Part shown: piece by piece, positions 5,554 to 20,070 of the stretch | Position numbering within the stretch: position 1 is the first letter of the stretch | Layout of the letters: each line of letters starts with the position of its first letter | Assembly: GCF_988243305.1 (NCBI RefSeq) | Contig: NZ_OZ547136.1 | Direction: 5' to 3' (one strand) | DNA: 64,000 nucleotides | Notes under the pieces: model-generated | Databases searched by the model: none | The model's input: the letters and a program-made list of their open reading frames with translations, nothing else | Told to the model about the DNA's origin: nothing | Position numbers and translations under genes: made by a program

Positions 5554-6225
5554 TCAGCGCTGTTTTTTATAGTAGCGTTCATTTTTATCGATGCCTGTGA
5601 AGGTTGATTGGGTCAACTCCAGTACTATGCAACCCTCTCTGAAAAGGGATTTATTATCAGGTTGCAGAATGCAACTTCGCACCACCCCCGTAAACAAAGA
5701 AAAAAGCAGGAACGCCAGAGCCTCACTACGAATTTCCGAACATATTTCTCTATATAACTTACCTTTTTCGAAAATATAACATAGTAATTTCACAAAATTA
5801 TTGACATCCACCATTTTTTGTAAGAAATTTATTCTTATATCATCCGGACATTCTTCACAAAAAAACACAATATAAATTACATTCCGTAAGTGTACATTAT
5901 ATTGTAATTTAATCAGGCTACGTGATAAGCAACGATACATCGCTTTAACCGGTTCAGAAACTCTCCCATTTTTGATGGCTGTAAGCTCATCAAATAATGA
6001 TAGTGGTACCCGCTCGATGACTTGTCGCAGAAGATCTTTTTTTTCGTTGAAATACCAGTATATGGCCCCCCGAGTACAACCTGCGCGCACCGCAATCATC
6101 TCCAGTGTCGTCTTCGAAAAGCCCGTCTCACAAAAGCAGAACTCTGCCGCATCCAGGATTTGTTTGCGGGTTTCTTCCGCTGCAAATTTTGTGTGCCGCA
6201 CCACTGTTGAAATCTCCATTGACAT
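5554..6225 (-). CDS. TetR/AcrR-family transcriptional repressor
   Basis: 223 aa; N-terminal TetR HTH (TRKQILDAAEFCFCETGFSKTTLEMIAVRAGCTRGAIYWYFNEK). Confidence 0.7.
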   Translation of the reverse strand: MSMEISTVVRHTKFAAEETRKQILDAAEFCFCETGFSKTTLEMIAVRAGCTRGAIYWYFNEKKDLLRQVIERVPLSLFDELTAIKNGRVSEPVKAMYRCLSRSLIKLQYNVHLRNVIYIVFFCEECPDDIRINFLQKMVDVNNFVKLLCYIFEKGKLYREICSEIRSEALAFLLFSLFTGVVRSCILQPDNKSLFREGCIVLELTQSTFTGIDKNERYYKKQR

Positions 6226-6324
6226 CTTATTTCAGGAAATATCTCTGGGGCATTTAGTACCAACCCAACAGCCATTTACTCAGGCGCAGTATGTTGTTTA
6301 CTGCACCTGAATATTTACTCATGC

Positions 6325-7389
6325 TTATGATTGCTCAGCTTCAGTCTTATCCGATGATTTCTTATTTCTGCGGCTGAAGAACCCGGCAATTAACATATAG
6401 AAGAGAGGAATATAAAAGATTGCCAGTATCGTAGCAGTGATCATCCCTCCAACCACACCAGTACCGATGGCATGTTTACTTCCGGAACTTGCTCCAGTCG
6501 AGACAGCCAGTGGGATAACCCCCATTACAAATGCCAGCGAAGTCATAATTATCGGTCTTAACCTCACTCTCGCCGCTTCAACAGCAGCCTCTTTAATGCT
6601 TAGTCCTTCTTTCTCATGCAATTCACGAGCAAACTCCACGATAAGTATGGCATTTTTCGCAGACAGCCCTATTGTTGTTAATAAACCGACCTGGAAAAAG
6701 ACATCGTTACCAAGGCCGCGCAACAAAGTAGCACAGACAGCCCCCAGGACACCAAGCGGAACAACCAGCATGACCGAGAAAGGAATGCTCCAGCTTTCAT
6801 ACAGTGCAGCCAGACACAGAAAGACGATCAACAGTGAAAGTGCATATAGTGCAGGAGCCTGAGAACCTGAAAGTCGTTCCTCAAAAGACAAACCTGTCCA
6901 GGAAATATGGAAACCTTCGGGAAGTCTTGCCGCAATATCCTCAATTGCTTTCATTGCATCCCCGGAACTGTATCCTGGTGCCGGTTCCCCCAGGATTTCG
7001 ACAGCAGAGATACCATTATATTGCTCCAGTTTTGGTGAGCCATAAATCCATTTGCCTGTTGCAAAAGAGGCAAAGGAAACCATGTCGCCATCACTGTTAC
7101 GGACATACCATTTATCAAAATCCTGCGGTGATATACGTGAGCCGGGTTCGCCCTAAATATAGACTTTTTTCACCCGTCCACGATCGTTAAAATCATTTAC
7201 ATACATCGAACCCCAGGCTGCTGGCATTATGTTGTCGACGTCGCTCATGCTCAGTTTAAGCGCCTGAACTTTCTCGTCATCAATCAGAATCTGGAACTGA
7301 GGCTCATCGTTCATGCCGTTAGGACGAACCATGTTTAACGCTGGACTTTTCGCCGCTTCAGCAAGAAGCTGATTTCGGGCCTGGATCAT
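6325..7389 (-). pseudogene. RND efflux transporter (AcrB/AcrF-like), C-terminal remnant, frameshifted and 5'-truncated by IS2
   Basis: ORFs 6325-7083 and 7153-7389 match the C-terminal third of AcrB-type pumps (VRPNGM...[27 protein letters not shown]...[13 protein letters not shown]) in two frames; upstream part absent, IS2 end at 7482. Confidence 0.7.
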
Positions 7390-7481
7390 TTTTTCATGGC
7401 CAGCTCCGCTACGATCCTCGAGGAACAGGTCAAACCCTGTAGCATTCCCCAGTTCTGATACGGCAGGGGGCGTTTTAAAAC

Positions 7482-7838
7482 TAGACTAGCCCCCAGAATC
7501 TCCAGACAACCAATATCACTTAAATAAGTGATAGTCTTAATACTAGTTTTTAGACTAGTCATTGGAGAACAGATGATTGATGTCTTAGGACCGGAGAAAC
7601 GCAGACGGCGTACTACACAGGAAAAGATCGCTATTGTTCAGCAGAGCTTTGAGCCGGGAATGACGGTCTCCCTTGTTGCCCGGCAACACGGTGTGGCAGC
7701 CAGCCAGTTATTTCTCTGGCGCAAGCAATACCAGGAGGGAAGTCTTACTGCTGTGGCCGCAGGAGAACAGGTCGTTCCTGCCTCTGAACTTGCTGCTGCC
7801 ATGAAGCAGATTAAAGAACTCCAGCGCCTGCTGAACAA
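7482..7838 (+). mobile_element. IS2 left end, truncated about 360 bp into the element
   Basis: tagactagcccccagaatctccagacaaccaatatcacttaaataagtgatagtc matches the IS2 left inverted repeat region; orfA (InsC) sequence diverges from IS2 after ...KELQRLL. Confidence 0.75.
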
Positions 7839-7863
7839 AACGCCGGATGTCTCCCGGCTCTGA
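7573..7863 (+). pseudogene. IS2 orfA (InsC) truncated, with a foreign 9-codon tail
   Basis: [56 protein letters not shown]... is IS2 InsC-like; the C-terminal residues do not continue as IS2. Confidence 0.7.
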
Positions 7864-8030
7864 AATTAAGGCTTCGGTTATTTGCACGAAATGTTCCTTT
7901 TCAAACCCTGTTGAATTTTGTTAAGCCGGTGCAGACACACGGAAAACGCACATCAACACCGGACGGTACGATACAAACACCAGTGACTGGCGGGACGAAG
8001 GGAATGACGAATCAGTCAGGAAATGATGAC
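7836..8030. repeat. Copy B of the roughly 180-bp conserved non-coding element (inverted relative to copy A)
   Basis: See copy A; lies between the IS2 truncation point and the small ORF/alpA. Confidence 0.5.
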
Positions 8031-8141
8031 AAACAGTTGGCAGACCAGAGGAGTCAGCAGAAAGATGAGCGGGAGTGTCGCCAGCATCGGGGACAGGGCT
8101 GATTTCCGCAATACCAGCGCCGGCATTGCAACACGTTTCAT
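8016..8141 (-). CDS. Hypothetical 41-aa hydrophobic peptide, translationally coupled to the AlpA-family gene
   Basis: MKRVAMPALVLRKSALSPMLATLPLIFLLTPLVCQLFVIIS; its ATG overlaps the alpA stop in an ATGA arrangement. Not in the ORF track (below 60 aa). Confidence 0.3.
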   Translation of the reverse strand: MKRVAMPALVLRKSALSPMLATLPLIFLLTPLVCQLFVIIS

Positions 8142-8371
8142 GCTGCTGCTCCTCGTGATTCCTCAATTCGCTGCTGCATCCACTGCTCCACTTCACTTTT
8201 GTACCAGCGGCTGCTGCGCCCCAGTTTGATGGGTTTAGGGAAATGACCTTCACTGATCAGCTTGTAAAACCATTTATCGGTCATACCGGTGAAACTGGTG
8301 ATGTAGTTCATGTCGATCAGGGGATCGTCGGCACGCAGTAACACGCTGTCGTGGCTTGTTGTGGTCAACAT
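8138..8371 (-). CDS. AlpA-family phage/island transcriptional regulator (excisionase-like HTH)
   Basis: 77 aa; ...YITSFTGMTDKWFYKLISEGHFPKPIKLGRSSRWYKSEVEQW matches AlpA-family DNA-binding proteins. Confidence 0.7.
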   Translation of the reverse strand: MLTTTSHDSVLLRADDPLIDMNYITSFTGMTDKWFYKLISEGHFPKPIKLGRSSRWYKSEVEQWMQQRIEESRGAAA

Positions 8372-8439
8372 GGTCAGAATGTCCTTTGTGAGATTTATGA
8401 AGTTTGTGCGAATGCAGGGAAAGATGCTGAACCGAGCTT

Positions 8440-9015
8440 TCAGAACGGTCCTGCAGATCCGGGATAGCCGGGATTACCGGCGAGGCAACGGGCTTCCGGA
8501 TCGCACACACCACGACGATCGCGGGCGAAATCACTGAACGCCCATATCAACTCTTTGAGGATGTTTTCACAGTCCGGTGAACGACTGTCCAGCACCACAT
8601 CCCGGGTGATCTGCTTCTGATACTGCTTTGCTTCACCCGGTGACGCGAAGCCCAGTACGTTGCTCCAGGCATCCAGAATCAGCCGGTCCAGTTCAGGGCC
8701 GTCGAAATACTCCTGTCTGACACACAGCACCACGTGGTATTCCGGCTTTTCAGGATGACGGGTCAGGAGCCAGCAGAGATCTCGTCCAGGTGTTGCATTC
8801 ATCAGCGCACTGACGGTTTCGATAAAGTCCATACCGAACCAGATCTTTCTGCTGCTGAAGGTACGGTCATATTCACATGGCAGACGAAGCAGGATCCGTC
8901 GTATCCGGGAGCCGGACTGCTCACGCAGCGCACGCTCAAGGACACCGATGATTTTGTTCTGATAAGACGGCCAGAAGGGTGCCAGGCTATAGTCGAAATA
9001 AGGGATAGCATTCAT
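8440..9015 (-). CDS. YfjJ/YagK-like (inovirus Gp2 family) island protein
   Basis: 191 aa from MNAIPYF (start trimmed from the ORF track); family assignment from memory of CP4-57-type islands. Confidence 0.45.
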   Translation of the reverse strand: MNAIPYFDYSLAPFWPSYQNKIIGVLERALREQSGSRIRRILLRLPCEYDRTFSSRKIWFGMDFIETVSALMNATPGRDLCWLLTRHPEKPEYHVVLCVRQEYFDGPELDRLILDAWSNVLGFASPGEAKQYQKQITRDVVLDSRSPDCENILKELIWAFSDFARDRRGVCDPEARCLAGNPGYPGSAGPF

Positions 9016-9272
9016 AAGATATGCTCCGTTATGCGCAGCCCACAATGCGTCCTGCCCGTGAATGAGCTGACGTGTTATAGCTTGCGGATGGGGTTGATGG
9101 AATAAGTGAAGAACCGAAGCAGAACGGGAAGATCAGGTCACCGACAAGGGACAGAACACCGGATGTGGTTAAGAGTGAATGATCTCCGTTGACTTCAGTT
9201 CACATCATTAAGCAAGGTGGTAAGGTTTTACCGACGGAATGTTTCCAGGACAGGAAGCTCAGGATTTAAGCT

Positions 9273-9839
9273 TCAGAAGTGAGGGTTACGAGGACGCCCT
9301 GCAGCAGGACGTTCAGGAACTTCATTGCAGCCGTAGGCACACAGCCCGTCTTTTTGCTCTTCTTTTGCCAGATAATGCAGGGCACCGCGAATATTATCGA
9401 TGCTTTCAGGATCGTTGTGGCGCACAGGAATGTTGATGTTGTATGTATAATGCGGCTGATATGTACAGCGGTGTGCCGAACCGCTGTTATGTGTAATAGA
9501 CCGCCAGCATTCCGTAATCCGCTCCGCAAAGGGATATATTTTTTTAACCCTCTGACGATCGATCCACAAAACCGCATGCGCATGAAAACCATGATCAGCC
9601 GTCCATTCAATCACCCAGAAGAAACCAACGATATTTTCAAATTGTTCCACCTGCTCCAGCAGCATACGCAACTGCAATTCAAGCCAGCGATGATCAGGTT
9701 GTAAGAAATCGGGCGTATCTTTCCTGTAGAAGAAATCCATCCGTAAGGCCCGCAGGCAGGAATAGCGTGCCATCATTTGATTGATGTGATTGTCAAGTAA
9801 AGCGGTAAAAAACCAGTTTGGTGTGTAAGATTTAGGCAT
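9273..9839 (-). CDS. YfjJ/YagK-like (inovirus Gp2 family) island protein
   Basis: 188 aa; HxH motif (FHAHAVLWIDRQ) as in Gp2-like proteins; adjacent paralogue at 8440-9015. Confidence 0.45.
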   Translation of the reverse strand: MPKSYTPNWFFTALLDNHINQMMARYSCLRALRMDFFYRKDTPDFLQPDHRWLELQLRMLLEQVEQFENIVGFFWVIEWTADHGFHAHAVLWIDRQRVKKIYPFAERITECWRSITHNSGSAHRCTYQPHYTYNINIPVRHNDPESIDNIRGALHYLAKEEQKDGLCAYGCNEVPERPAAGRPRNPHF

Positions 9840-10671
9840 GTTGATGACTCCTGAAAGTTAATGATGTTTTAAGCTCTGTGAACGAATTAATGCTTTCGCT
9901 CATAACGGTAATAACTTACAGATGGTATTTATCAGGCATGCTGTAGCAGAATGGATACGACGGGTTATTAACGATACGCAGCATTATGCAGAAAGAAATG
10001 GATTATCTGATGGTATTAGCTAAAGAGATGAGATAAACGAGGAGTAAAGAAAATACAGACTCAATAAAACATCACGAAATACTGTAAAATACGAGCTAAA
10101 ACCCCACTACCTGGAGATTAAGAAACATATTGCGACCAATCACATCATAAACTACAAACTTGCTCTCAGTGAGTCTGCAAAAACGTGTACAAGGCCAACA
10201 CATATCTGTAACCTGATAAAATCATACACTCTCATTTAATCTGTTAAAAACAACTCACTTCAAAACATGAGCGTTAACGGGTACACGGTACCAGAATAAA
10301 ATATACCATGGATGGATAATTTTCATTTTGTTTAACATACAAGATAATCAGAAACGAACAAATATAATCAGGAATTCACTCTGTTAATTTCATTGTTTAT
10401 CCTGCGCTGTTAAACATGACGAAATCATGGATACCTTATCAAAGAGTAAACATCCAGTTAATCAGTGATGACAGAAGTATTGATATTTACCAGAATAGTT
10501 AAAACACTTCAGGTCAACAACAATCATCGTTAAGTCAATACAGTTCATTATGGATAATGACTAAAATCAATTGCTGTTTCAGTGAAGACTGATAACAGGT
10601 AGATATTAGCAACAACGTAGTAAAATAACTTATCTGAGTATCGTATGAATTACAGTAGTTATGATTGAATG

Positions 10672-10721
10672 AAGGAGAAGGTGGAGAAGGTGGAGAAGGT
10701 GGAGAAGGTGGAGAAGGTGGA
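10672..10721. repeat. Tandem repeat, 9-bp unit GTGGAGAAG, about 5.5 copies
   Basis: Direct read: (g/a)aggagaag then gtggagaag x4 then gtgga; embedded in a purine-rich plus strand within a 1.3 kb AT-rich non-coding region. Confidence 0.9.
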
Positions 10722-11157
10722 TACCATGATAATGGTGGCAATGAAGATTAGACAAGGAAGGGAGTAAGTATAATCGGGTGAGGGTCAGAGTAATGGAATG
10801 AGTAAAGATAGAGAGTAAGTAAAAACAGAGTGAATAAAGACAAAGTGAATATAATTATAGTAATAAACCTAAATTAAAAATACTTGCGTATAATGGAAAG
10901 AAATAAGAATTAAGAATAGCGTATGAGTCGTAGTCATGACCTGGCTACAAAAAGTCATTCCATCTGGCTGTCATTCAGACACACTCCCCAAACATTCGAC
11001 TACAAAGTACTAACAGAAAATTAACTGATGTATTATTCTTCTGCCCTGAATGAACATCCGGAAGTATAATCTCCCCTAGCTTCACGTTCACCGGGAAAAA
11101 CGAAGCTATTTACTTTGATGATCGCTGACGAAAAACCGAACAGGCAGTTGCATAATC

Positions 11158-12252
11158 ATGGACAACAGAGAAAAAGAGATACTCAGGATCCTGCGTCACA
11201 ACCCACTGATCCAGCAGAATGAAATTGCTGAGATTTTACAAATCAGTCGGTCGCGTGTTGCTGCACACATTATGGATCTGATGCGCAAAGGTGCGATTAA
11301 AGGGAAAGGCTACATCCTGACAGAACAGGAATACTGTGTTGTTCTTGGGGCGATTAACATGGATATCCGTGGGGTGGCGGATATCCATTATCCACAGAAA
11401 TCCTCCAGTCCGGGCAGTATTTACTGCTCTGCCGGAGGTGTCGGACGCAACATCGCCCATAATCTCGCCCTTCTGGGCCGCAATGTGCATCTGATATCTG
11501 CTGTAGGCAATGATTTTTATGGCGAAACATTACTGGAGCAGACCCGCCTGGCCGGCGTTAATGTCACCAATTGTATTCGACTGAACGGACAAAATACTTC
11601 AACTTATGTCTCCATCGCCGACCTACAGGCAGAAACAGTGATGGCGATTAATGATACCCATATTCTGCAACAACTGACGCCGCAGTTGCTGGACGCCTCA
11701 CGTATGTTAATCCGTCACGCTGGCGTGGTGCTGGCTGACTGTAATCTGACACCTGCCGCCCTTGAATGGATCTTTACGGTCGCTGACGGCATTCCCGTTT
11801 TTATTGATACAGTGTCGAAATTTAAGGCTGTTAATGTAAAAAACTGGCTTCCGCATATCCATACCCTGAAACCCACACAAAAAGAACTGGAGATATTATG
11901 GGGTTCCCCTGTCAACAATGAGACCGATCTACTCACCGCAGTGAACGCACTACATCAGCAGGGTGTGCAACAGATTTTTGTCTGGATGGGAGATGAATCC
12001 GTTTTCTGTAGCCAAAGAGAGGGAGAACAATTTCTGCTCACACCGCCCGTTCATGCCGTTGTGGACAGCTTTGGTGCAGATGATGGCTTTATGGCAGGTC
12101 TGCTTTACAGTTTTCTGGAAGGAAGTAGTTTCCAGGAAAGTGCTCACTTTGCGATGGCATGTGCAGCACTGTCACGTGCCAGCACCAGCATCAATAACCC
12201 AACACTTTCCGTTAATAACGCGCAATATCTGTTAAAAACATCCCGGGGGTAA
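11158..12252 (+). CDS. YeiI-like protein: N-terminal winged-helix HTH fused to a PfkB-family sugar kinase domain
   Basis: 364 aa; N-terminal HTH (ILRILRHNPLIQQNEIAEILQISRSRVAAHI), PfkB motifs (GGVGRNIAHNLALLG; DSFGADDGFMAG). Confidence 0.65.
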   Translation: MDNREKEILRILRHNPLIQQNEIAEILQISRSRVAAHIMDLMRKGAIKGKGYILTEQEYCVVLGAINMDIRGVADIHYPQKSSSPGSIYCSAGGVGRNIAHNLALLGRNVHLISAVGNDFYGETLLEQTRLAGVNVTNCIRLNGQNTSTYVSIADLQAETVMAINDTHILQQLTPQLLDASRMLIRHAGVVLADCNLTPAALEWIFTVADGIPVFIDTVSKFKAVNVKNWLPHIHTLKPTQKELEILWGSPVNNETDLLTAVNALHQQGVQQIFVWMGDESVFCSQREGEQFLLTPPVHAVVDSFGADDGFMAGLLYSFLEGSSFQESAHFAMACAALSRASTSINNPTLSVNNAQYLLKTSRG

Positions 12253-12270
12253 CACCCGGGATTGTATTTT

Positions 12271-13521
12271 TTATGCCAGCCCAATGAAAAAACCAGCGAT
12301 AGTCGCACTCATCAGGTTTGACAGGGTGGCCGCCGCCAGTGCACGCATGCCCAGTTGTGCAATTTCAGGTGCACGCTGAGGTGATATGGCTGAAAAGGCA
12401 CCCACCACCACACCAATGGAGCCAAAGTTGGCAAAACCACACAGTGCAAAAGAAATAATTGCGGTGGTTTTCACATCAAGCGTACTGCCTGGCTGTAAAT
12501 AGGGTGAAAGATTGAGATAAGCAACAAATTCGTTAATTGCCAGCTTCTGACCAATCAGACTTCCTGCCAGTGAAGCATCCGCCCAGTCAACGCCCATGAT
12601 CCACGCAAGGGGAGCCAAAATCCAGCCGAAAATGCCCTCAAGGGTAATATTACCATAACCAAACCAGCCTCCGATACCACCGATTATACCGTTAATCAGA
12701 GCAATAATAGCAACAAAGGTCATCACTACCGTTGCAACTCCGACAGCGATTTTCAACCCGGTCATCGCCCCGCTGGCCACTGCTTCAATAACACTTTTGG
12801 GAGGAGTATCAGTGAAAGAAAGATTTTCAAAAGTGACTTTTGATTCTTCTGTGGCCGGACTCAGAATACGGGCAAAAAGGATCCCCCCCGGGATCGCCAT
12901 CAACGACGCCGCCAGCAAATAGTCAATCGGAACCCCCATCCCGGCATAGCCGATCATCATTGAACCGGCAATCGAAGCCATCCCACTGCAGATGACAGTA
13001 AATAATTCATTACGATTCAGACGATTAATAAACGGTTTTACAATTGCCGGGATCTCGTTTTGCCCCAGGAAAATTGTCGTTACTGCCACAAATGACTCAA
13101 CTTTACTTATGTTCAGAGCTTTCTGAAAAATCCCCCCCAGAATACGGATAAGCCCCCCCATCACTCTGATGTAGTACAGCAGACTGATAAGCGCTGTAAC
13201 AAAAATGATGGCAGGAAGTACACGGAAGGCGAAGATAAAACCCGCCCCATCGAACAGTACGTCCATTTTGTCCCCTACCAGAGAGCCAAAAATAAAGGCA
13301 CTGCCCGCATCACTGTAAGACATAATTTTATGTACGCCCAGTGCAGCCTGTTCAACCAGCCATTTCCCCGGGGGGAAATAGAGCATGATCCCACCAATCG
13401 CGATTTGAAGAACCAGTGCAGCTCCTGTGGTACGTAAACTGATACGTTTTTTATTCACTGATAGTAGAAATGCAATTATCAGCAATACTGCCATTCCCAC
13501 TATACTTCTCATGATGTCCAT
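12271..13521 (-). CDS. psuT: NupC-family nucleoside transporter (PsuT/YeiM-like)
   Basis: 416 aa polytopic membrane protein with NupC-like sequence; position next to psuG/psuK. Confidence 0.65.
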   Translation of the reverse strand: MDIMRSIVGMAVLLIIAFLLSVNKKRISLRTTGAALVLQIAIGGIMLYFPPGKWLVEQAALGVHKIMSYSDAGSAFIFGSLVGDKMDVLFDGAGFIFAFRVLPAIIFVTALISLLYYIRVMGGLIRILGGIFQKALNISKVESFVAVTTIFLGQNEIPAIVKPFINRLNRNELFTVICSGMASIAGSMMIGYAGMGVPIDYLLAASLMAIPGGILFARILSPATEESKVTFENLSFTDTPPKSVIEAVASGAMTGLKIAVGVATVVMTFVAIIALINGIIGGIGGWFGYGNITLEGIFGWILAPLAWIMGVDWADASLAGSLIGQKLAINEFVAYLNLSPYLQPGSTLDVKTTAIISFALCGFANFGSIGVVVGAFSAISPQRAPEIAQLGMRALAAATLSNLMSATIAGFFIGLA

Positions 13522-13604
13522 AATGCTCTCCCCTTATACCTGAACCAGACACGGAATCTGGTTCAGGTAATTTCGGGCGACCTCACACTGCCCGTTCATT
13601 TATA

Positions 13605-14540
13605 TCAGACAATTTGTTGATATTCTTTTGCTATCTCACAGGCCAGAACTGCGTTGTTGAATACCAGCTGAATATTTGATTTCAGACTGTCACCACCGGT
13701 TAATTCTGCCACCCGTGCCAGCAGGAACGGTGTGCTTTCTTTACCGGTAATGCCCTGCACTTCCGCTTCTTTTACGGCCTGGTCAATTGCTGCATTAATT
13801 TTCTCTTCCGCCATGGCGTAAGCTTCCGGAATCGGATTGGCAACAACCAGACCACCGTTCAGGCCGGTTTGCCATTTCACTGCCATCGCGCGGGCAATCT
13901 CTTTTGCACTGTCCAGACGTATACTGACCTCAAACGGACTGGTGCGGCAAAAAAATGCCGGCAATGATCTTGTCTGATAGCCAATTAAAGGTACACCAAA
14001 TGTTTCTAAATATTCCGTGGTTAACCCTAAATCGAGAATGGATTTCGCGCCTGCACAAACCACGGTGACATTAGTATGTGCCAGTTCCTGTAGGTCGGCT
14101 GAAATATCAAAAGTGTGTTCTGCACCGCGATGAACGCCGCCAATTCCTCCTGTGGCAAAAACTTTAATTCCGGCAAGAGCAGCAATAATCATGGTTGAAG
14201 CTACCGTTGTTGCACCATGTTTTCCTTCAGCAATAACGAAAGGTAAATCCCGGCGACTGACTTTGGTAACGTTATGTCCTTCGCGACCCAGTAATTCAAT
14301 CTCATCTTTACTTAACCCGACTTTCATTACACCGCCAATAACGGCAATGGTGGCTGGTACTGCTCCGTGTTTACGTATAGTTTCTTCGACTTCAATAGCC
14401 GTCTGAGCATTCTGAGGAAAAGGCATACCATGTGAGATAATTGTTGACTCGAGAGCAACAACAGGTTTTTTACTGTTAATGGCATCCTGTACTTCCGGTG
14501 AAATTTGCAGTAATTCAGAAGAAATGGTTATTTCAGACAT
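13605..14540 (-). CDS. psuG: Pseudouridine-5'-phosphate glycosidase (PsuG/YeiN, IndA-like)
   Basis: 311 aa; close to E. coli YeiN by memory (…VVALESTIISHGMPFPQN…GGIGGVHRG…). Confidence 0.7.
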   Translation of the reverse strand: MSEITISSELLQISPEVQDAINSKKPVVALESTIISHGMPFPQNAQTAIEVEETIRKHGAVPATIAVIGGVMKVGLSKDEIELLGREGHNVTKVSRRDLPFVIAEGKHGATTVASTMIIAALAGIKVFATGGIGGVHRGAEHTFDISADLQELAHTNVTVVCAGAKSILDLGLTTEYLETFGVPLIGYQTRSLPAFFCRTSPFEVSIRLDSAKEIARAMAVKWQTGLNGGLVVANPIPEAYAMAEEKINAAIDQAVKEAEVQGITGKESTPFLLARVAELTGGDSLKSNIQLVFNNAVLACEIAKEYQQIV

Positions 14541-15468
14541 TCTGTTTCTCCACTAAGCTTTTAACGTTAGCAACAGATAATTCAGGATTATTGGTATACT
14601 CACTGGCCAGCGCCATTGATGAACACCCCTGTGCAAATCGAATGGAATCAATAAATGGCATATTATCAACCCAGCAGGAAGCCAGCCCTGCCATCATGGC
14701 ATCCCCTGCCCCCGTAACGTTCACCACCTGTGTTTTTACTGGCGGCGACCAGCCGCTGGCTCCGTACAGTTCGCTGTAATAAACTCCATCCCCCCCCATG
14801 CTGAGCACAAGGCGATTCAGACCATGTGTATGGAACCATACCGCCACTTTTTCAGCATCATTCCGATCTGAAAGCGAAATACCACTGAGTGTTTCTGCTT
14901 CAAGCCGGTTGGGCTTGAGAGTATGAATTTGTGCTAAATGTTCACGAATTTTGACACACTTCCATGCAGATACCGGGTCAACAAATACCGGAACCTTACC
15001 TGCATTATTCAGTAGCCAGACAAGTGTTGACTCACTGATATTACAGTCTGCAACAATAACCTTCGCTCCCTGAATAAAATCAATATGCTGTGATAAAAAC
15101 TCAGCTGAAATATGTTCACTAATCGTCATGTCATTTATTGCCACCAACATTTCACCGGTTTTATCGAGAAGTGATAAATAACTTGAGGTATTTTCTCCAT
15201 TAACAATCAGACATTTATCAACATTAACGCCGGACTGAGTCGTTTGTGCTAATAATGATTGCCCGTAGAAATCATCTCCCACAGCTGACATCAGCCATGA
15301 GTTTTTACCCAGCAGAGCAAGATTATGTGCAATATTACGCCCCACACCTCCGGGCGTGAATTTAATCTTCCCCGGGTTAGAATCAGCATAATTTAAGGAG
15401 GCATACGAATATCCGGCTATATCTATATTGGCAGAGCCAATTGTGATGATGTATTCCTTATCACACAT
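14533..15468 (-). CDS. psuK: Pseudouridine kinase (PsuK/YeiC, PfkB family)
   Basis: 311 aa from MCDKEY with RBS aggag; PfkB motifs GGVGRNIAHNLALLG and GAGDAMMAG; overlaps psuG start by 8 nt. Confidence 0.7.
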   Translation of the reverse strand: MCDKEYIITIGSANIDIAGYSYASLNYADSNPGKIKFTPGGVGRNIAHNLALLGKNSWLMSAVGDDFYGQSLLAQTTQSGVNVDKCLIVNGENTSSYLSLLDKTGEMLVAINDMTISEHISAEFLSQHIDFIQGAKVIVADCNISESTLVWLLNNAGKVPVFVDPVSAWKCVKIREHLAQIHTLKPNRLEAETLSGISLSDRNDAEKVAVWFHTHGLNRLVLSMGGDGVYYSELYGASGWSPPVKTQVVNVTGAGDAMMAGLASCWVDNMPFIDSIRFAQGCSSMALASEYTNNPELSVANVKSLVEKQNV

Positions 15469-16003
15469 GGCACATCTCCTGACATTTAAAAACACAAAAA
15501 TAATAAATCTGTATTTCTATTCGACCACGCAGATAGAGTTGAACATATATTCAAAATCAAACATGTGTTCACTTTATGCCTGTTTTTAGAAATGTAAATA
15601 CCAGTCCAGAATCAAAAAGTGAAAAATGAAAACAGGATCACAATTTTTATCGTTAATCCATGTTGTCCTTATCCGGTTTTATGGCGTTGCCCTGTTTCAT
15701 CAGGTTATTTGCATGAACGGAATAAATACCGGAGATGACAGGAAACACCATAAGATATTCAGGATGTTACGATGAATTTCATGAGGATCGCTAAAAATGA
15801 GCCTGTTTAATAATTTTATGCAAACACCTTATACCAGGGCTTCCCTTCGGAGATATCAATGACCCCGACAGCGCTCTCACTGCCCTGGTTGCTGGTTTCC
15901 GATATCCTCTTAACTTGCAGGCTCATCCCGCATTTCACTCATGGTGAATAAGGCACATAATGGTCTGGAGTCAATTCTGGCTTACGATTTGTAAATATAA
16001 TAA

Positions 16004-16456
16004 TTAAAGCGTTCTCAAAAGTCTGGCTGGATTACCGGCATACACGCCTTTTACCAGCACGGGCTTTGTAACCACACTACCAGCCCCAATCACTGCTCCA
16101 CTGCAAATTTCTGTTGTTAAAATAGTCGCTCCGCTACCCACTGTTACAGTGTTACCTAATACGATACGTATCCAGCTTTCTGCAGAGGCATCGGGACCAC
16201 CACACTTAAAAAGATCATTAGCAAAAGTTACGCCATGACCGATGAAACAGCCATCACCTAAAATGACGTTCTCACAGATGAAACTGTGGGACTGAATTCG
16301 GCTCCGCTTGCCAATGATGCATCCCTTCTGTATTTCCACAAAGGGACCGATAAAAACATCATCCCCCAGTTCACATTCATAGAGGTTTACTGGCATGACG
16401 ACTTTCACATTTTCACCAAATTTCACATCACGAATGCCGCTGTTAATAACGTGCAT
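16004..16456 (-). CDS. Hexapeptide-repeat (left-handed beta-helix) acyl/acetyltransferase
   Basis: 150 aa with repeated [LIV]G-x-x-x-x hexapeptides (IGKRSRIQSHSFICENVILGDGCFIGHGVTFAND...VTVGSGATIL). Confidence 0.55.
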   Translation of the reverse strand: MHVINSGIRDVKFGENVKVVMPVNLYECELGDDVFIGPFVEIQKGCIIGKRSRIQSHSFICENVILGDGCFIGHGVTFANDLFKCGGPDASAESWIRIVLGNTVTVGSGATILTTEICSGAVIGAGSVVTKPVLVKGVYAGNPARLLRTL

Positions 16457-16976
16457 ATCCGTTGTATCCTCCCTCAGGATGATTCTTATCAGAACATTTC
16501 ACCTGTCAGAATATTCCCGGTAATGCGATACAAGATCCTGTCTCACCGGGTACCACGTGTTATTGCCCGTATCCTTTTGCCCGTTACGAGTGTACAACCG
16601 GTTTTGTATTTTGCAATCCAGGCCTGTTACACCAGAGCATCCTCCCACTGCCCCCTCACTGCTCAGTCCGGGATTCAAAGTCATCTTCCAGCACTAAACC
16701 TCATACCAGTTCTGAACCTTCCCTCGCCAGCAGTCAGGATCGTACGGTTCACCACTATCCTCTTCCGTGAATGGCAGTAAGTGAGCAGCACCAAAATAAA
16801 TCGGTACTTCCAATGACAGACAGTGAAAGTGTAAGGGGAAATATGAACATGAGAATGGAAGCAGATAAAAATACCGTTTCATGACTTCAGGGCGATTATC
16901 AGAAAACGAGCTAAGGGCGTCAGCCAACGTCCTGACCGTGGTATACGCTCAGGCACCGGATGCTGTTTTACCGGGT

Positions 16977-17708
16977 TCACCTGCCATCCAGTAGACGCCC
17001 CGGCCCACGACTGCAACCATAATTACGTTGCCCGGAACCGTCATGCTGCTTCGTCTCATATTTCACGAGATAACTGGCTCTGTTCCGGGCTTTCTGCAGC
17101 GCTTCCACATCACCACGCTTGATCCAGAGCACAGCGGCTTCACCTGGCTTTTTGTCTGAAGCCTTCCTGGTATCAGAACATCCACCCGACAAAGGCGTGT
17201 CATCGGAAGAAGGGCGAGCATCAGACGATGTCGGTTTACGGGAAGGCGTCCACCTGGAAAAATGGACCAGGCCATCGCCTTGCCAGGGCTCAAGATGCAG
17301 GGCGCTGCACCATGCCTCCTGGATCATCGTCGCCAGCGAAGACGGTTCGCTGAAATCCCCGAGCGAGCACCAGGTATCTTTGTTGAGCAGTAATATCACG
17401 TGATAATGTTTCCTGCCATACATCTTGCCGAACTCCCGGCACCAGAAATAACGCAGGCTGGTTGCATGCACACGCTGATTGGCCCATCTTTTTTTCCGCT
17501 GGTAAGCCTGAATTTTGGCTTTCAGGGATGCGAAAAAACGGGAAATCACCGCTGAATCCGGATCGGGATCCATGATGGTGACAGGCATATACTCAGGGAA
17601 ACGTAAATCCACCCGGATTAACGAGACGGCACGGTGTTGCACCAGGGCACTGTTGAGAATACTTTCAAAACGGGATAACCAGTAATCATTGTGTATTGGT
17701 TGATTCAT
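16977..17708 (-). CDS. YfjJ/YagK-like (inovirus Gp2 family) island protein, third paralogue
   Basis: 243 aa; HYHVILLLNKDTW motif; resembles the proteins at 8440 and 9273. Confidence 0.45.
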   Translation of the reverse strand: MNQPIHNDYWLSRFESILNSALVQHRAVSLIRVDLRFPEYMPVTIMDPDPDSAVISRFFASLKAKIQAYQRKKRWANQRVHATSLRYFWCREFGKMYGRKHYHVILLLNKDTWCSLGDFSEPSSLATMIQEAWCSALHLEPWQGDGLVHFSRWTPSRKPTSSDARPSSDDTPLSGGCSDTRKASDKKPGEAAVLWIKRGDVEALQKARNRASYLVKYETKQHDGSGQRNYGCSRGPGRLLDGR

Positions 17709-18377
17709 GATGAGAGATCTCCGTTGATTTGGATTGACTTCACATCATTAATCACTGCGGTAAAACTTTACGGCATCCCGCCATTGAGCAACGCCAATGG
17801 CTCCTGATTAAAACAGAATGAATCGTCCCGTAACGAAAAGATAATCCTGCACACGACAGCAAAACGTAAAACAACAGCATGAATGAGCTAAATGTCTAAA
17901 GAAAAACTGCCTTTTCACATTATTTTTCAGCGAGTAATCATACCAGCATCCCTAACATACGAAATCGCATCGTGATCGATCGCTGATTCGCCGAACAACT
18001 GATCGAATACACCGGAATCTGCACTAACATCCTGATGGGTAACGGAAGACTAAAAAACCAGTGTTCTATTGATTGCACGGAATGCCTGTGCGCTGGCCTG
18101 ACCAGTAAGCACAATTCTACGAGTAGTAAGATATCTACTCCAAAACCATGCGCAGTAGCCACCATATGTTGCCAGGGTGAAAAATAAGCTCAGAGCTATA
18201 GGGGAGTAATTCCCGTTAATGTCATCGCCGTACCTCAATCAGCTCACAAACTGGCTGAAACGTTAAGCTGAGGCCTTTATTCTTCAGATGTATTTTCCGG
18301 TTTACCTGTAAATTATCTTCTGATATTTATCACATTAGTAATTGTGCTGATTATCTACATACTTCAAGGTCTGAAAT

Positions 18378-18908
18378 ATGAAGCTAACAGAAGAAAGTCT
18401 GAATCTAGTCATTGACATCCTGAATGATTTGATCTGTGAAGGAAAAATGCTGAACGATGTGGAGCGCAGATCTCTGCTCAATGCAGTTATGGCAATTACA
18501 GCGGTAAAAGAACGTTCTGTCGTATCTGTATCATCCCGAAAAGAGCAAAGTAAGAAGGAGAAGAAGGAAAGAGAGATCGATCCTCGTTTCCCAAATGCTG
18601 GTGTGGCATGGAATGAGGCAGACGAGAGTTTATTGCGAGATGTTCTGGAGGATGTACCGGACGATGAAATTGGTAAACACCTTTTCTGGCTAGCAGAGAA
18701 ACTAGGGCGAACCCCGTACAGTGTAGCCTGTAAAGTCAGACAAATTAAGAAATTACCTGCAGAATGGAAGGATCAATTTCGTAAAATCTCTGACAGGATC
18801 CGTAGTTCTGGAATGTCAGTCAGTGAATATCTACAACGCCAGGGACTGTTAAGCCCAGAGTCAGGGGAAGAAAACAATCCTGTCAGTCATAACAACAATG
18901 TAGCTTAA
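18378..18908 (+). CDS. Hypothetical protein, 176 aa, lysine/glutamate-rich linker
   Basis: ORF on coding-like sequence bounded by AT-rich non-coding DNA; no recognisable motif. Confidence 0.45.
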   Translation: MKLTEESLNLVIDILNDLICEGKMLNDVERRSLLNAVMAITAVKERSVVSVSSRKEQSKKEKKEREIDPRFPNAGVAWNEADESLLRDVLEDVPDDEIGKHLFWLAEKLGRTPYSVACKVRQIKKLPAEWKDQFRKISDRIRSSGMSVSEYLQRQGLLSPESGEENNPVSHNNNVA

Positions 18909-20070
18909 TCCTGAAGAAGATGAACAGTTTATACTCTTTAAACTGTTCCCTTAATTTTAGAAAAACAGTTTGTGTAAGTGCATGCTCCAACATTCTGAAG
19001 GCGTTATTTCTTACAATACATCATAATCATTGGCAGATCCTCATCTGAATCAAAACACCACAACCAATCATCACACTTTTTCTGAAAAGAGCCTTATGAT
19101 GAAGATAATCACCTTACGCTGAGAAAAAACACCAGGGCCAGTTAATCACCTTATCAATCTCGCCGTTACAAAATCATCCATAAGCCATTTAACAGTGTTA
19201 TCGCAAACTCACAGTAAATCGCATCAGGTTACCTCAATCGGATTTGAGTTAATTCACTGGGCTTTACGTAAAGATACTTTTCTCAGGTTAACGACTAAAA
19301 CACGAAAACTCAGAAAAGGTTAAACACAGGTTCAGTAAAATCGAATATCATCTTGATTGCTTAAACAGGACAGAGGGTTTTGTAGTGAGGTTAACTGATT
19401 TTAGCGATCGTAAAAAAAGGACTAACAAATTTACTAAACTGGATGTGTTTCAGACAAAGCAATGTGTACAGCAATGCTTAATGAAAATACTTGTATGATT
19501 GTCTATGAAAATGCGTGTATAACACTTAGTGAAGATATGTCTGTATAATACGTATATAGTACCATTCCCGACATTCTCAATATCTTCAGACATCCATGCA
19601 GACTGAGTGTTGATTTCAGTTTTTCACGGCCAGCATGGATCTTTACTGGTCAAAAAACAGACAGGTTTACTCTGGAATTATTTTTTTGATTCCGTCTTCA
19701 GAACAACAAAAACTCGTGATAACTCTACAACAAACTATCGTAATTGGCTTCTGTAACCCCGTCACTTTTCCTAAGAAACGTGCCCCCATATGATGCGGGA
19801 GAGATAAGTCATCGTATACAGGAAACACTGCCAATCATAATATGGCGTCATTCAGTAATTTTTATCCATAATCAGATTAGCATATCATGATTATTGAATA
19901 TTATGATATATAGCTCATATGAATGTGTTATTATCTGTAAGCGTTAAGCATCACATTGCATAACCATACTAAGCTGGCTAATCATCAACATTTTTATATG
20001 TAACTCATTGAAATTAATTATATGTTTTTTGTGAATAATTAATATGTAATGTGAAATTAATATTTTTACA

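Follow-up and report, generated by a model that had tools for sequence, protein, structure and literature searches.

Three genes at positions 8440-9015, 9273-9839 and 16977-17708 of a 64,000-nt stretch of DNA (contig NZ_OZ547136.1, referred to as the window) had been proposed in a first-pass annotation to be YfjJ/Gp2-like paralogues. They are designated P1, P2 and P3 here. Profile comparisons show that P1, P2 and P3 are of common ancestry and belong to the YagK/YfjJ superfamily (PF11726, "inovirus Gp2-like", HUH Rep-like). With a probability of about 0.6, they are ancient paralogues that encode small single-domain HUH Rep-like proteins and belong to the conserved backbone of a chromosomal island widespread in E. 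coli. The three open reading frames (ORFs) are all present on the minus strand and agree with the RefSeq gene calls, which were read from the identical segment of NZ_AP022049.1:

8440-9015, minus strand: P1, degenerate YagK/YfjJ paralogue, 191 amino acids (aa); WP_001564054, "hypothetical protein"
9273-9839, minus strand: P2, diverged "inovirus-type Gp2" paralogue, 188 aa; WP_001126810, "YagK/YfjJ domain-containing protein"
16977-17708, minus strand: P3, canonical YagK/YfjJ ("inovirus Gp2 family") protein, 243 aa; WP_001075495, "inovirus Gp2 family protein"

The family proposed for all three genes was confirmed by a PF11726 match for P3 and by profile-profile matches for P2 and P1. None of the three was assigned to an unrelated family in the profile searches.

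P3 matches PF11726 with 123.7 bits (E 9.4e-36) and passes the curated threshold (gathering cut-off 25.8). In addition, it matches PF23343 (E 5.6e-9) and PHROG replication-initiation families. It is 36% identical to YfjJ from the cryptic prophage CP4-57 of E. coli K-12 and 34% identical to YagK from CP4-6; it resembles both in length and shares their HUH and Y-x-x-K motifs. The HUH motif of P3 is H101-Y-H103 and its tyrosine motif is Y213-L-V-K-Y217-E-T-K. H-[YF]-H and Y-L-x-K are kept in all intact P3 relatives aligned; the sole exception is a frameshifted sequence. A PDB sequence search with P3 as query yielded no relatives. P3 differs from YfjJ and YagK by an extra low-complexity insertion of ~45 aa (residues ~150-195), which is rich in Ser, Pro, Asp and Lys and separates the last strand from the tyrosine helix. 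This insertion is a property of the E. coli P3 clade and is missing from the relatives of 189-208 aa in other genera as well as from both K-12 proteins. Some database alleles are frameshifted within it.

P2 represents a subfamily more distant from YfjJ and YagK. Its matches to PF11726 (22.8 bits, E 9.8e-5) and PF23343 (24.8 bits, E 2.8e-5) lie just under the gathering scores. P2 relatives across Enterobacterales carry Gp2-type names, and the close ones often have precomputed PF11726 or PF23343 matches. When a P2-family profile (20 sequences) was compared with a P3-family profile (19 sequences), they matched at 95% (E 3.5e-8) over 180 columns. The HUH motif of P2 is H86-A-H88 and its tyrosine motif is Y156-L-A-K-E-E-Q-K. 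Both the H86/H88 HxH and Y156-[LM]-x-K are invariant in 20 P2 relatives from Enterobacterales.

P1 found no match in direct profile scans against Pfam, NCBIfam, PHROGs and PADLOC. It fails the PF11726 gathering score, and its relative P0006 reaches 11.9 bits. In pairwise BLASTP, the E values for P1 are 0.02-0.035. Homologues of P1 retrieved by word-indexed search are confined to E. coli (identity at least 60%), and the resulting shallow profile matched the P3 family at just 43%. An exhaustive search of representatives found two full-length distant relatives, P0303 and P0309, with 36% and 31% identity to P1. P0303 itself exceeds the PF11726 cut-off of 25.8 with 41.8 bits (E 1.4e-10). Once P0303 and P0309 had been added, the P1 profile matched the P3-family profile at 97.3% (E 1.8e-11). 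Furthermore, a P1-family hidden Markov model (HMM) matches K-12 YfjJ over nearly its full length (E 2.8e-11), and an alignment of 31 sequences is collinear from the N-terminal helix through the C-terminus. A scan of GTDB genomes with the P1 alignment returned one locus only.

The motif residues themselves are lost in P1. Its HUH position reads E92-Y-H94, and its relatives have C-Y-H or F-Y-H. The tyrosine motif is replaced by W158-A-F-S161-D162-F-A-R-D-R, for which the subfamily consensus is W-x-x-S-D-x-x-R-D-R, and no member has a tyrosine there. The shared HxH motif claimed in the first-pass annotation is therefore borne out for P2 and P3 and absent from P1. Judged by these alignments, P1 is a member of a conserved, catalytically degenerate subfamily apart from the motif-bearing copies.

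P1 is under purifying selection and not decaying. Compared with the alleles from UTI89 and from a metagenome-assembled genome (MAG), the ratio of nonsynonymous to synonymous substitution rates (dN/dS) is 0.13 for P1 at a dS of 0.36-0.43, 0.17-0.28 for P2 and 0.33-0.39 for P3; alpA has 0.07. In comparisons with UTI89 (locus L016) and the MAG contig (L006), the neighbouring P2 has a dS of 0.07-0.14, and P1 exceeds it three- to fivefold, which points to mosaic alleles or to recombination within the module.

Since pairwise protein identities among P1, P2 and P3 do not exceed 20%, the set is attributed to ancient paralogue diversification. The same value rules out a recent duplication. Tandem sets in which a catalytic paralogue is joined by one degenerate paralogue or by two are found in two distant lineages (L003 and L005), too.

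Predicted structures are consistent with an HUH fold, without being decisive. The best or best-named structure matches are HUH Reps, namely ORF119 of Sulfolobus islandicus rod-shaped virus 1 (SIRV1), parvovirus NS1, adeno-associated virus (AAV) Rep, microvirus Rep and inovirus Gp2. In a library of viral models, the named matches comprise microvirus replication initiators, parvovirus NS1 and "Inovirus Gp2". The predicted model of P2 places the HxH on a strand, and the predicted topology of P1 agrees with the HUH fold. Identities to the solved Rep domains, SIRV1 ORF119 (2x3g), NS1 of bocavirus, minute virus of mice (MVM) and B19, and AAV5 Rep (1m55), amount to only 8-15%, and generic ferredoxin-like folds reach scores in an overlapping range. 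In contrast to the Rep enzymes, P1 is devoid of their catalytic residues.

The layout of the locus is conserved well beyond this strain. Many complete E. coli chromosomes, e.g. NZ_AP022049.1, match positions 7500-19000 with 100% identity, and at least 80% of this 11.5 kb stretch is present in 375 genomes. Among 5426 complete E. coli genomes, P1 was found in 1985, P2 in 1572 and P3 in 1878 (29-37%). The following features accompany the three genes:

8138-8371, minus strand: alpA-type helix-turn-helix (HTH) regulator or excisionase-like gene (PF05930, E 2e-10); the sole alpA in the window (tblastn)
9840-10900, minus strand: AT-rich non-coding leader upstream of P2, ~1 kb, ~35% GC (composition, alignment, pattern search)
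11158-16456: cargo between P3 and the P2 leader, comprising an HTH-sugar kinase, a NupC-type transporter, pseudouridine-5'-phosphate glycosidase, pseudouridine kinase and an acyltransferase (RefSeq)

As previously proposed, P3 lies beyond the pseudouridine module: the module itself (11158-15495) and the acyltransferase part P2 from P3. P2 and P1 are adjacent, as had also been stated, and alpA is next to them, but on the downstream side of P1. The order of transcription, all on the minus strand, is P2, P1, alpA.

In the E. coli strains UTI89 and P24_WM1 and in the MAG contig L006, the same order recurs: P3, variable cargo, AT-rich leader, P2, P1, alpA and a fourth paralogue. In UTI89 and P24_WM1, P3 is preceded by the GTPase backbone and followed by ~26 kb of cargo, and the fourth paralogue is followed by cdiBA. 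Their cargo slot holds a restriction enzyme, a choline (cut) microcompartment and dsdCXA (L017, 7900-32700). The slot in L006 (3895-4650) carries a TIR-domain gene. Because the same order is found with other cargo in UTI89, P24_WM1 and the MAG, the layout is not an accident of this strain. Its set of three or four paralogues makes up a conserved backbone, and the stretch from P3 to the P2 leader is a slot with variable content.

In three independent lineages, a P1-like gene shares a module with a motif-intact paralogue; it directly follows the latter in two of them and is separated from it by two genes in the third. L005 has a zinc-ribbon gene, alpA, a YagK gene with intact motifs, a P1-like gene and a UCP030791 gene. 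In L003, alpA is followed by a P2-type gene, two intervening genes, a P1-like gene and a UCP030791 gene. Simple islands of Enterobacter, Klebsiella, Xenorhabdus and Morganellaceae have one intact Gp2/YagK gene beside alpA, located between the GTPase/DUF932 backbone and defence cargo, and no hidden degenerate copies were found in the simple islands of these genera.

The fourth paralogue, which had been missed in the first-pass annotation, is present in the window as a remnant only:

~7822-7887, minus strand: first ~21 codons of a fourth, degenerate paralogue, UCP030791/PF27752-like (translations, collinearity)
7573-7839, plus strand: IS3-family transposase fragment that cuts short the module (RefSeq, ORF list)

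RefSeq lists a pseudogene at 7804-7887 that covers the remnant. The window is collinear with L006 at 88% from 10677 down to 7820, and homology ends at the IS3 fragment. In both L006 and UTI89, the gene after alpA is a full-length fourth paralogue of ~180 aa (WP_001534800 in UTI89). An HMM of PF27752/UCP030791-type proteins recognizes the L006 protein (E 1.9e-13), the UTI89 protein (2.5e-11) and P3 (2.3e-7), and one UCP030791 protein matches PF11726 with an E value of 9.3e-5. The HUH position of the fourth paralogue is degenerate, e.g. M-R-C, and the conserved tyrosine helix is likewise gone. An HMM scan of all ORFs of the 64 kb window revealed no full copies beyond P1, P2 and P3. In UTI89 (L016), the fourth paralogue is followed by conserved hypothetical proteins of 207 aa (6980-7603) and 77 aa (6649-6882), then by cdiBA. 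Both genes belong to the intact modules and are not in the window. The 207-aa protein has no PADLOC match, and neither protein matches a paralogue HMM.

The three genes are also connected by short elements in their upstream DNA, which the first-pass annotation had likewise not reported:

17716-17771, minus strand: 56-nt block directly upstream of P3, from the inverted repeat GTAAAGTTTTACC (17759-17771) to the ribosome binding site region (local alignment, pattern search)
9181-9231, minus strand: part of the spacer between P2 and P1 that is homologous to the DNA upstream of P3; it carries the inverted repeat GTAAAACCTTACC at 9219-9231 (local alignment)
9907-9919, minus strand: inverted repeat GTAAGTTATTACC in the leader upstream of P2, 68-80 nt from the gene (pattern search)

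The blocks upstream of P1 and P3 are identical at 41 of 56 positions, with a local score of 39, whereas 500 shuffles gave 23 at most. Both open with the inverted repeat GTAA-N4-TTACC. This pattern occurs at three sites in the 64 kb, one upstream of each of P1, P2 and P3 (0.30 sites expected; three reached in none of 100 shuffles). It is kept upstream of the orthologues in L006, UTI89 and P24, and the P1-like gene of L005 has a variant of it upstream. GTAA-N4-TTACC is the only candidate cis-element and probably serves the three genes jointly as operator or recognition site, by which they would be co-regulated. A search for nicking-site-like repeats, as originally suggested, thus yielded a shared repeat but no significant hairpins, and a role of the repeat as nick site, although possible, is unsupported. 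Promoter and terminator counts were at shuffle level, and Rfam gave one sub-threshold chance match and none above threshold.

The leader upstream of P2 contains no ORF and has no Rfam match. It is ~88% identical to that of L006, the same level as the neighbouring genes. Candidate roles are a promoter, an H-NS target or an origin. At 10674-10727 it carries a tandem array of ~5 units of 9 bp (GGAGAAGGT), which varies in length between strains, since the homologous L006 sequence has a single unit. Apart from this array, the repeat search found weak palindromes only.

P1, P2 and P3 sit inside a large composite island that ends ~29.5 kb into the window, beside cadC. On the left, the module is flanked by a glycyl-radical propanediol microcompartment operon, a TetR gene, an RND-permease pseudogene and the IS3 fragment (RefSeq). 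This junction (5554-7863) is decayed: the TetR gene is intact, the RND efflux permease pseudogene (6325-7470) has an internal stop and has lost its N-terminus, and the IS3-family fragment truncates the fourth paralogue. The right flank comprises GTPase, DUF932, antirestriction, RadC-like and CbtA/YeeU genes (RefSeq), which are typical of CP4-57/CP4-44-type islands. Divergent from P3, a 176-aa hypothetical protein is encoded at 18378-18908 (plus strand). It has a weak sub-threshold match over residues 132-157 to the relaxosome accessory protein NikA (PF21983, E 0.011), which may be due to chance and is of note in view of the relaxase role considered below.

From their conserved motifs, P3 and P2 are predicted to be metal-dependent enzymes that nick and join single-stranded DNA. 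Their substrate would be the island after its excision by AlpA and the integrase, and they would either start rolling-circle replication or serve as relaxase for mobilisation. P1 and the fourth paralogue may be non-catalytic DNA-binding or partner subunits that modulate the activity of P3 and P2. In filamentous phages, gpX modulates gpII, and phiX174 produces A*; both are shorter, non-initiating products that modulate a Rep protein. They provide a loose analogy for a non-catalytic relative of an initiator that is encoded beside it and presumed to be a modulator. However, gpX and A* are made in frame from within the initiator gene itself, whereas P1 is a separate, anciently diverged gene. The cargo slot, whose content varies greatly, lies between the motif-intact P3 and P2, and each of these two genes has the short inverted repeat ahead of it. 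It is conceivable, albeit a long shot, that P3 and P2 nick the DNA at these repeats and thereby cause the cargo to be copied in a rolling-circle manner or exchanged, or the excised island to be replicated, with P1 and the fourth copy as dedicated specificity or regulatory subunits.

Several explanations compete with ancient paralogy within one conserved backbone. Multiplicity could have resulted from an old, not strain-specific accretion of two island control modules, one with P3 and the GTPase, DUF932 and antirestriction genes and the other with P2, P1, alpA and the fourth paralogue, the cargo marking the former junction. We take this seriously but think it somewhat improbable. In simple islands, a single Gp2/YagK gene and a single alpA lie next to each other where the backbone meets the cargo; P3 occupies this canonical position without an alpA of its own, and in L003 the P2-type, P1-like and UCP030791 genes form a self-contained module. 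No second alpA and no zinc-ribbon remnant was found near P2 or P3. However, E. coli lineages that differ in their cargo have kept the arrangement in full, and the P3-type gene of L005 stands in direct tandem with P1-like and UCP genes. In addition, P1 is nearer to the P3 type than to P2 and shares the 56-nt upstream block with P3. Taken together, the tandem in L005, the profiles and the upstream block argue that P1 is linked to P3 by duplication and not to a separate P2 module. Between the two origins offered in the first-pass annotation, fusion of island modules or paralogue diversification, the low identities and the shared layout speak for diversification, and a strain-specific fusion is not upheld; an old merger of a P3 module with a P2-P1-alpA module may have taken place. 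A different explanation is that the whole family, including the motif-bearing copies, no longer cuts DNA and consists of small DNA-binding regulators of transcription or silencing for which the inverted repeats are operators. This would agree with single-domain proteins that have no helicase, with the inverted repeat of its own upstream of each gene, which suggests autoregulation, with degenerate copies that persist under selection, and with a literature search that found no enzymatic data for the family. It is nevertheless unlikely: the HUH and tyrosine motifs are invariant or nearly so in 20 P2-type and in the intact P3-type relatives, down to 37-42% identity, which is hard to explain without catalysis.

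Two further explanations hardly deserve credit. If P1 were unrelated to P2 and P3 and resembled them by chance or composition, its failure to match Pfam, NCBIfam or PHROG models directly, its poor BLASTP values and the 43% of the E. coli-only profile would be expected. This is effectively refuted by the 97.3% match obtained after the relatives of 31-36% identity had been added, by P0303 scoring above the PF11726 cut-off, by the match of the P1 HMM to YfjJ, by the collinear full-length alignment and by a predicted topology that fits the HUH fold. Similarly, the genes are most improbable leftovers of integrated filamentous (inovirus) prophages, although the product name hints at such an origin. 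The PF23343 and PHROG replication-initiator matches and one viral structural match named "Inovirus Gp2" had pointed in this direction. However, coat, Zot-like, morphogenesis or ssDNA-binding genes are annotated nowhere in the island, and the constant neighbours are alpA and the GTPase, DUF932, antirestriction and toxin-antitoxin genes of CP4-57-type islands. As the island annotation comprises no phage genes, a filamentous prophage origin was ruled out.

The interpretation of the set as ancient, HUH Rep-like backbone paralogues has to be balanced against a number of observations. P2 scores under the Pfam cut-offs, and P3-family sequences were part of the alignment used for the P1 model. The comparison between P1-family and P2-family profiles is not significant; therefore, P1 joins the family via the P3 type only. 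A literature search for a demonstrated activity of any PF11726 member found none. The upstream repeat has a stem of only 4-5 bp, and homologues from other genera and from K-12 lack it in their upstream DNA. Neither an origin-like hairpin nor an iteron was detected, and DNA folding of five upstream segments gave z values of -0.63 to +0.55. Many simple islands have a single catalytic paralogue and no P1-like partner, so that the partner is dispensable. Finally, this copy of the island may be immobile or inert, because the fourth paralogue is destroyed and the integrase beside cadC is a fragment (RefSeq).

Among known systems, the K-12 islands are the closest. The YfjJ island combines alpA with a P4-type integrase, and the island described here is an alpA island as well. 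The K-12 islands have one copy each, in contrast to the set of three or four in the present one, and P1 lacks the first histidine and the tyrosine of YfjJ and YagK. P3 and P2 resemble plectrovirus and inovirus ORF2/G2P (PF23343) and the PHROG "replication initiation protein" around the HUH strand. They differ from ORF2/G2P by the absence of a filamentous-phage context, by their single domain of ~190-240 aa and by their location in an integrase/alpA island; P1 has no match to these proteins. In Pseudomonas, transducible islands have been described for which Gp2-like and AlpA genes are treated as core genes (10.1101/2024.08.29.610337). The islands I23, I44 and I55 at the tmRNA site encode an integrase, a Gp2-like gene just before alpA at one end, RadC and variable defence or other cargo, and they are transferred by a jumbo phage (10.1101/2024.08.29.610337). 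Their Gp2-like-alpA arrangement resembles P2-P1-alpA. Host and attachment site are different, though, each element has one Gp2-like gene, and degenerate paralogues were not described (10.1101/2024.08.29.610337). For transfer by a jumbo phage, no counterpart is known for this E. coli island.

Much of the result is ordinary: two of the three genes were already annotated with their family, and the island type was known. New are the recognition of P1 as a motif-dead paralogue that has been conserved, the remnant of a fourth copy and the inverted repeat common to the upstream regions of all three genes. The widespread "hypothetical protein" family WP_001564054 gains a name. The split into motif-intact and motif-dead copies, the constant association of the motif-dead copies with an intact partner and the shared repeat of the E. 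coli copies provide handles for experiments. YagK/YfjJ-type genes are among the commonest genes of unknown role in enterobacterial islands. If P3 and P2 indeed nick DNA at the upstream repeats to copy or exchange the cargo, with the assistance of P1 and the fourth copy, CP4-57-type islands would possess a multi-paralogue HUH machine for cargo turnover that has not been described before.

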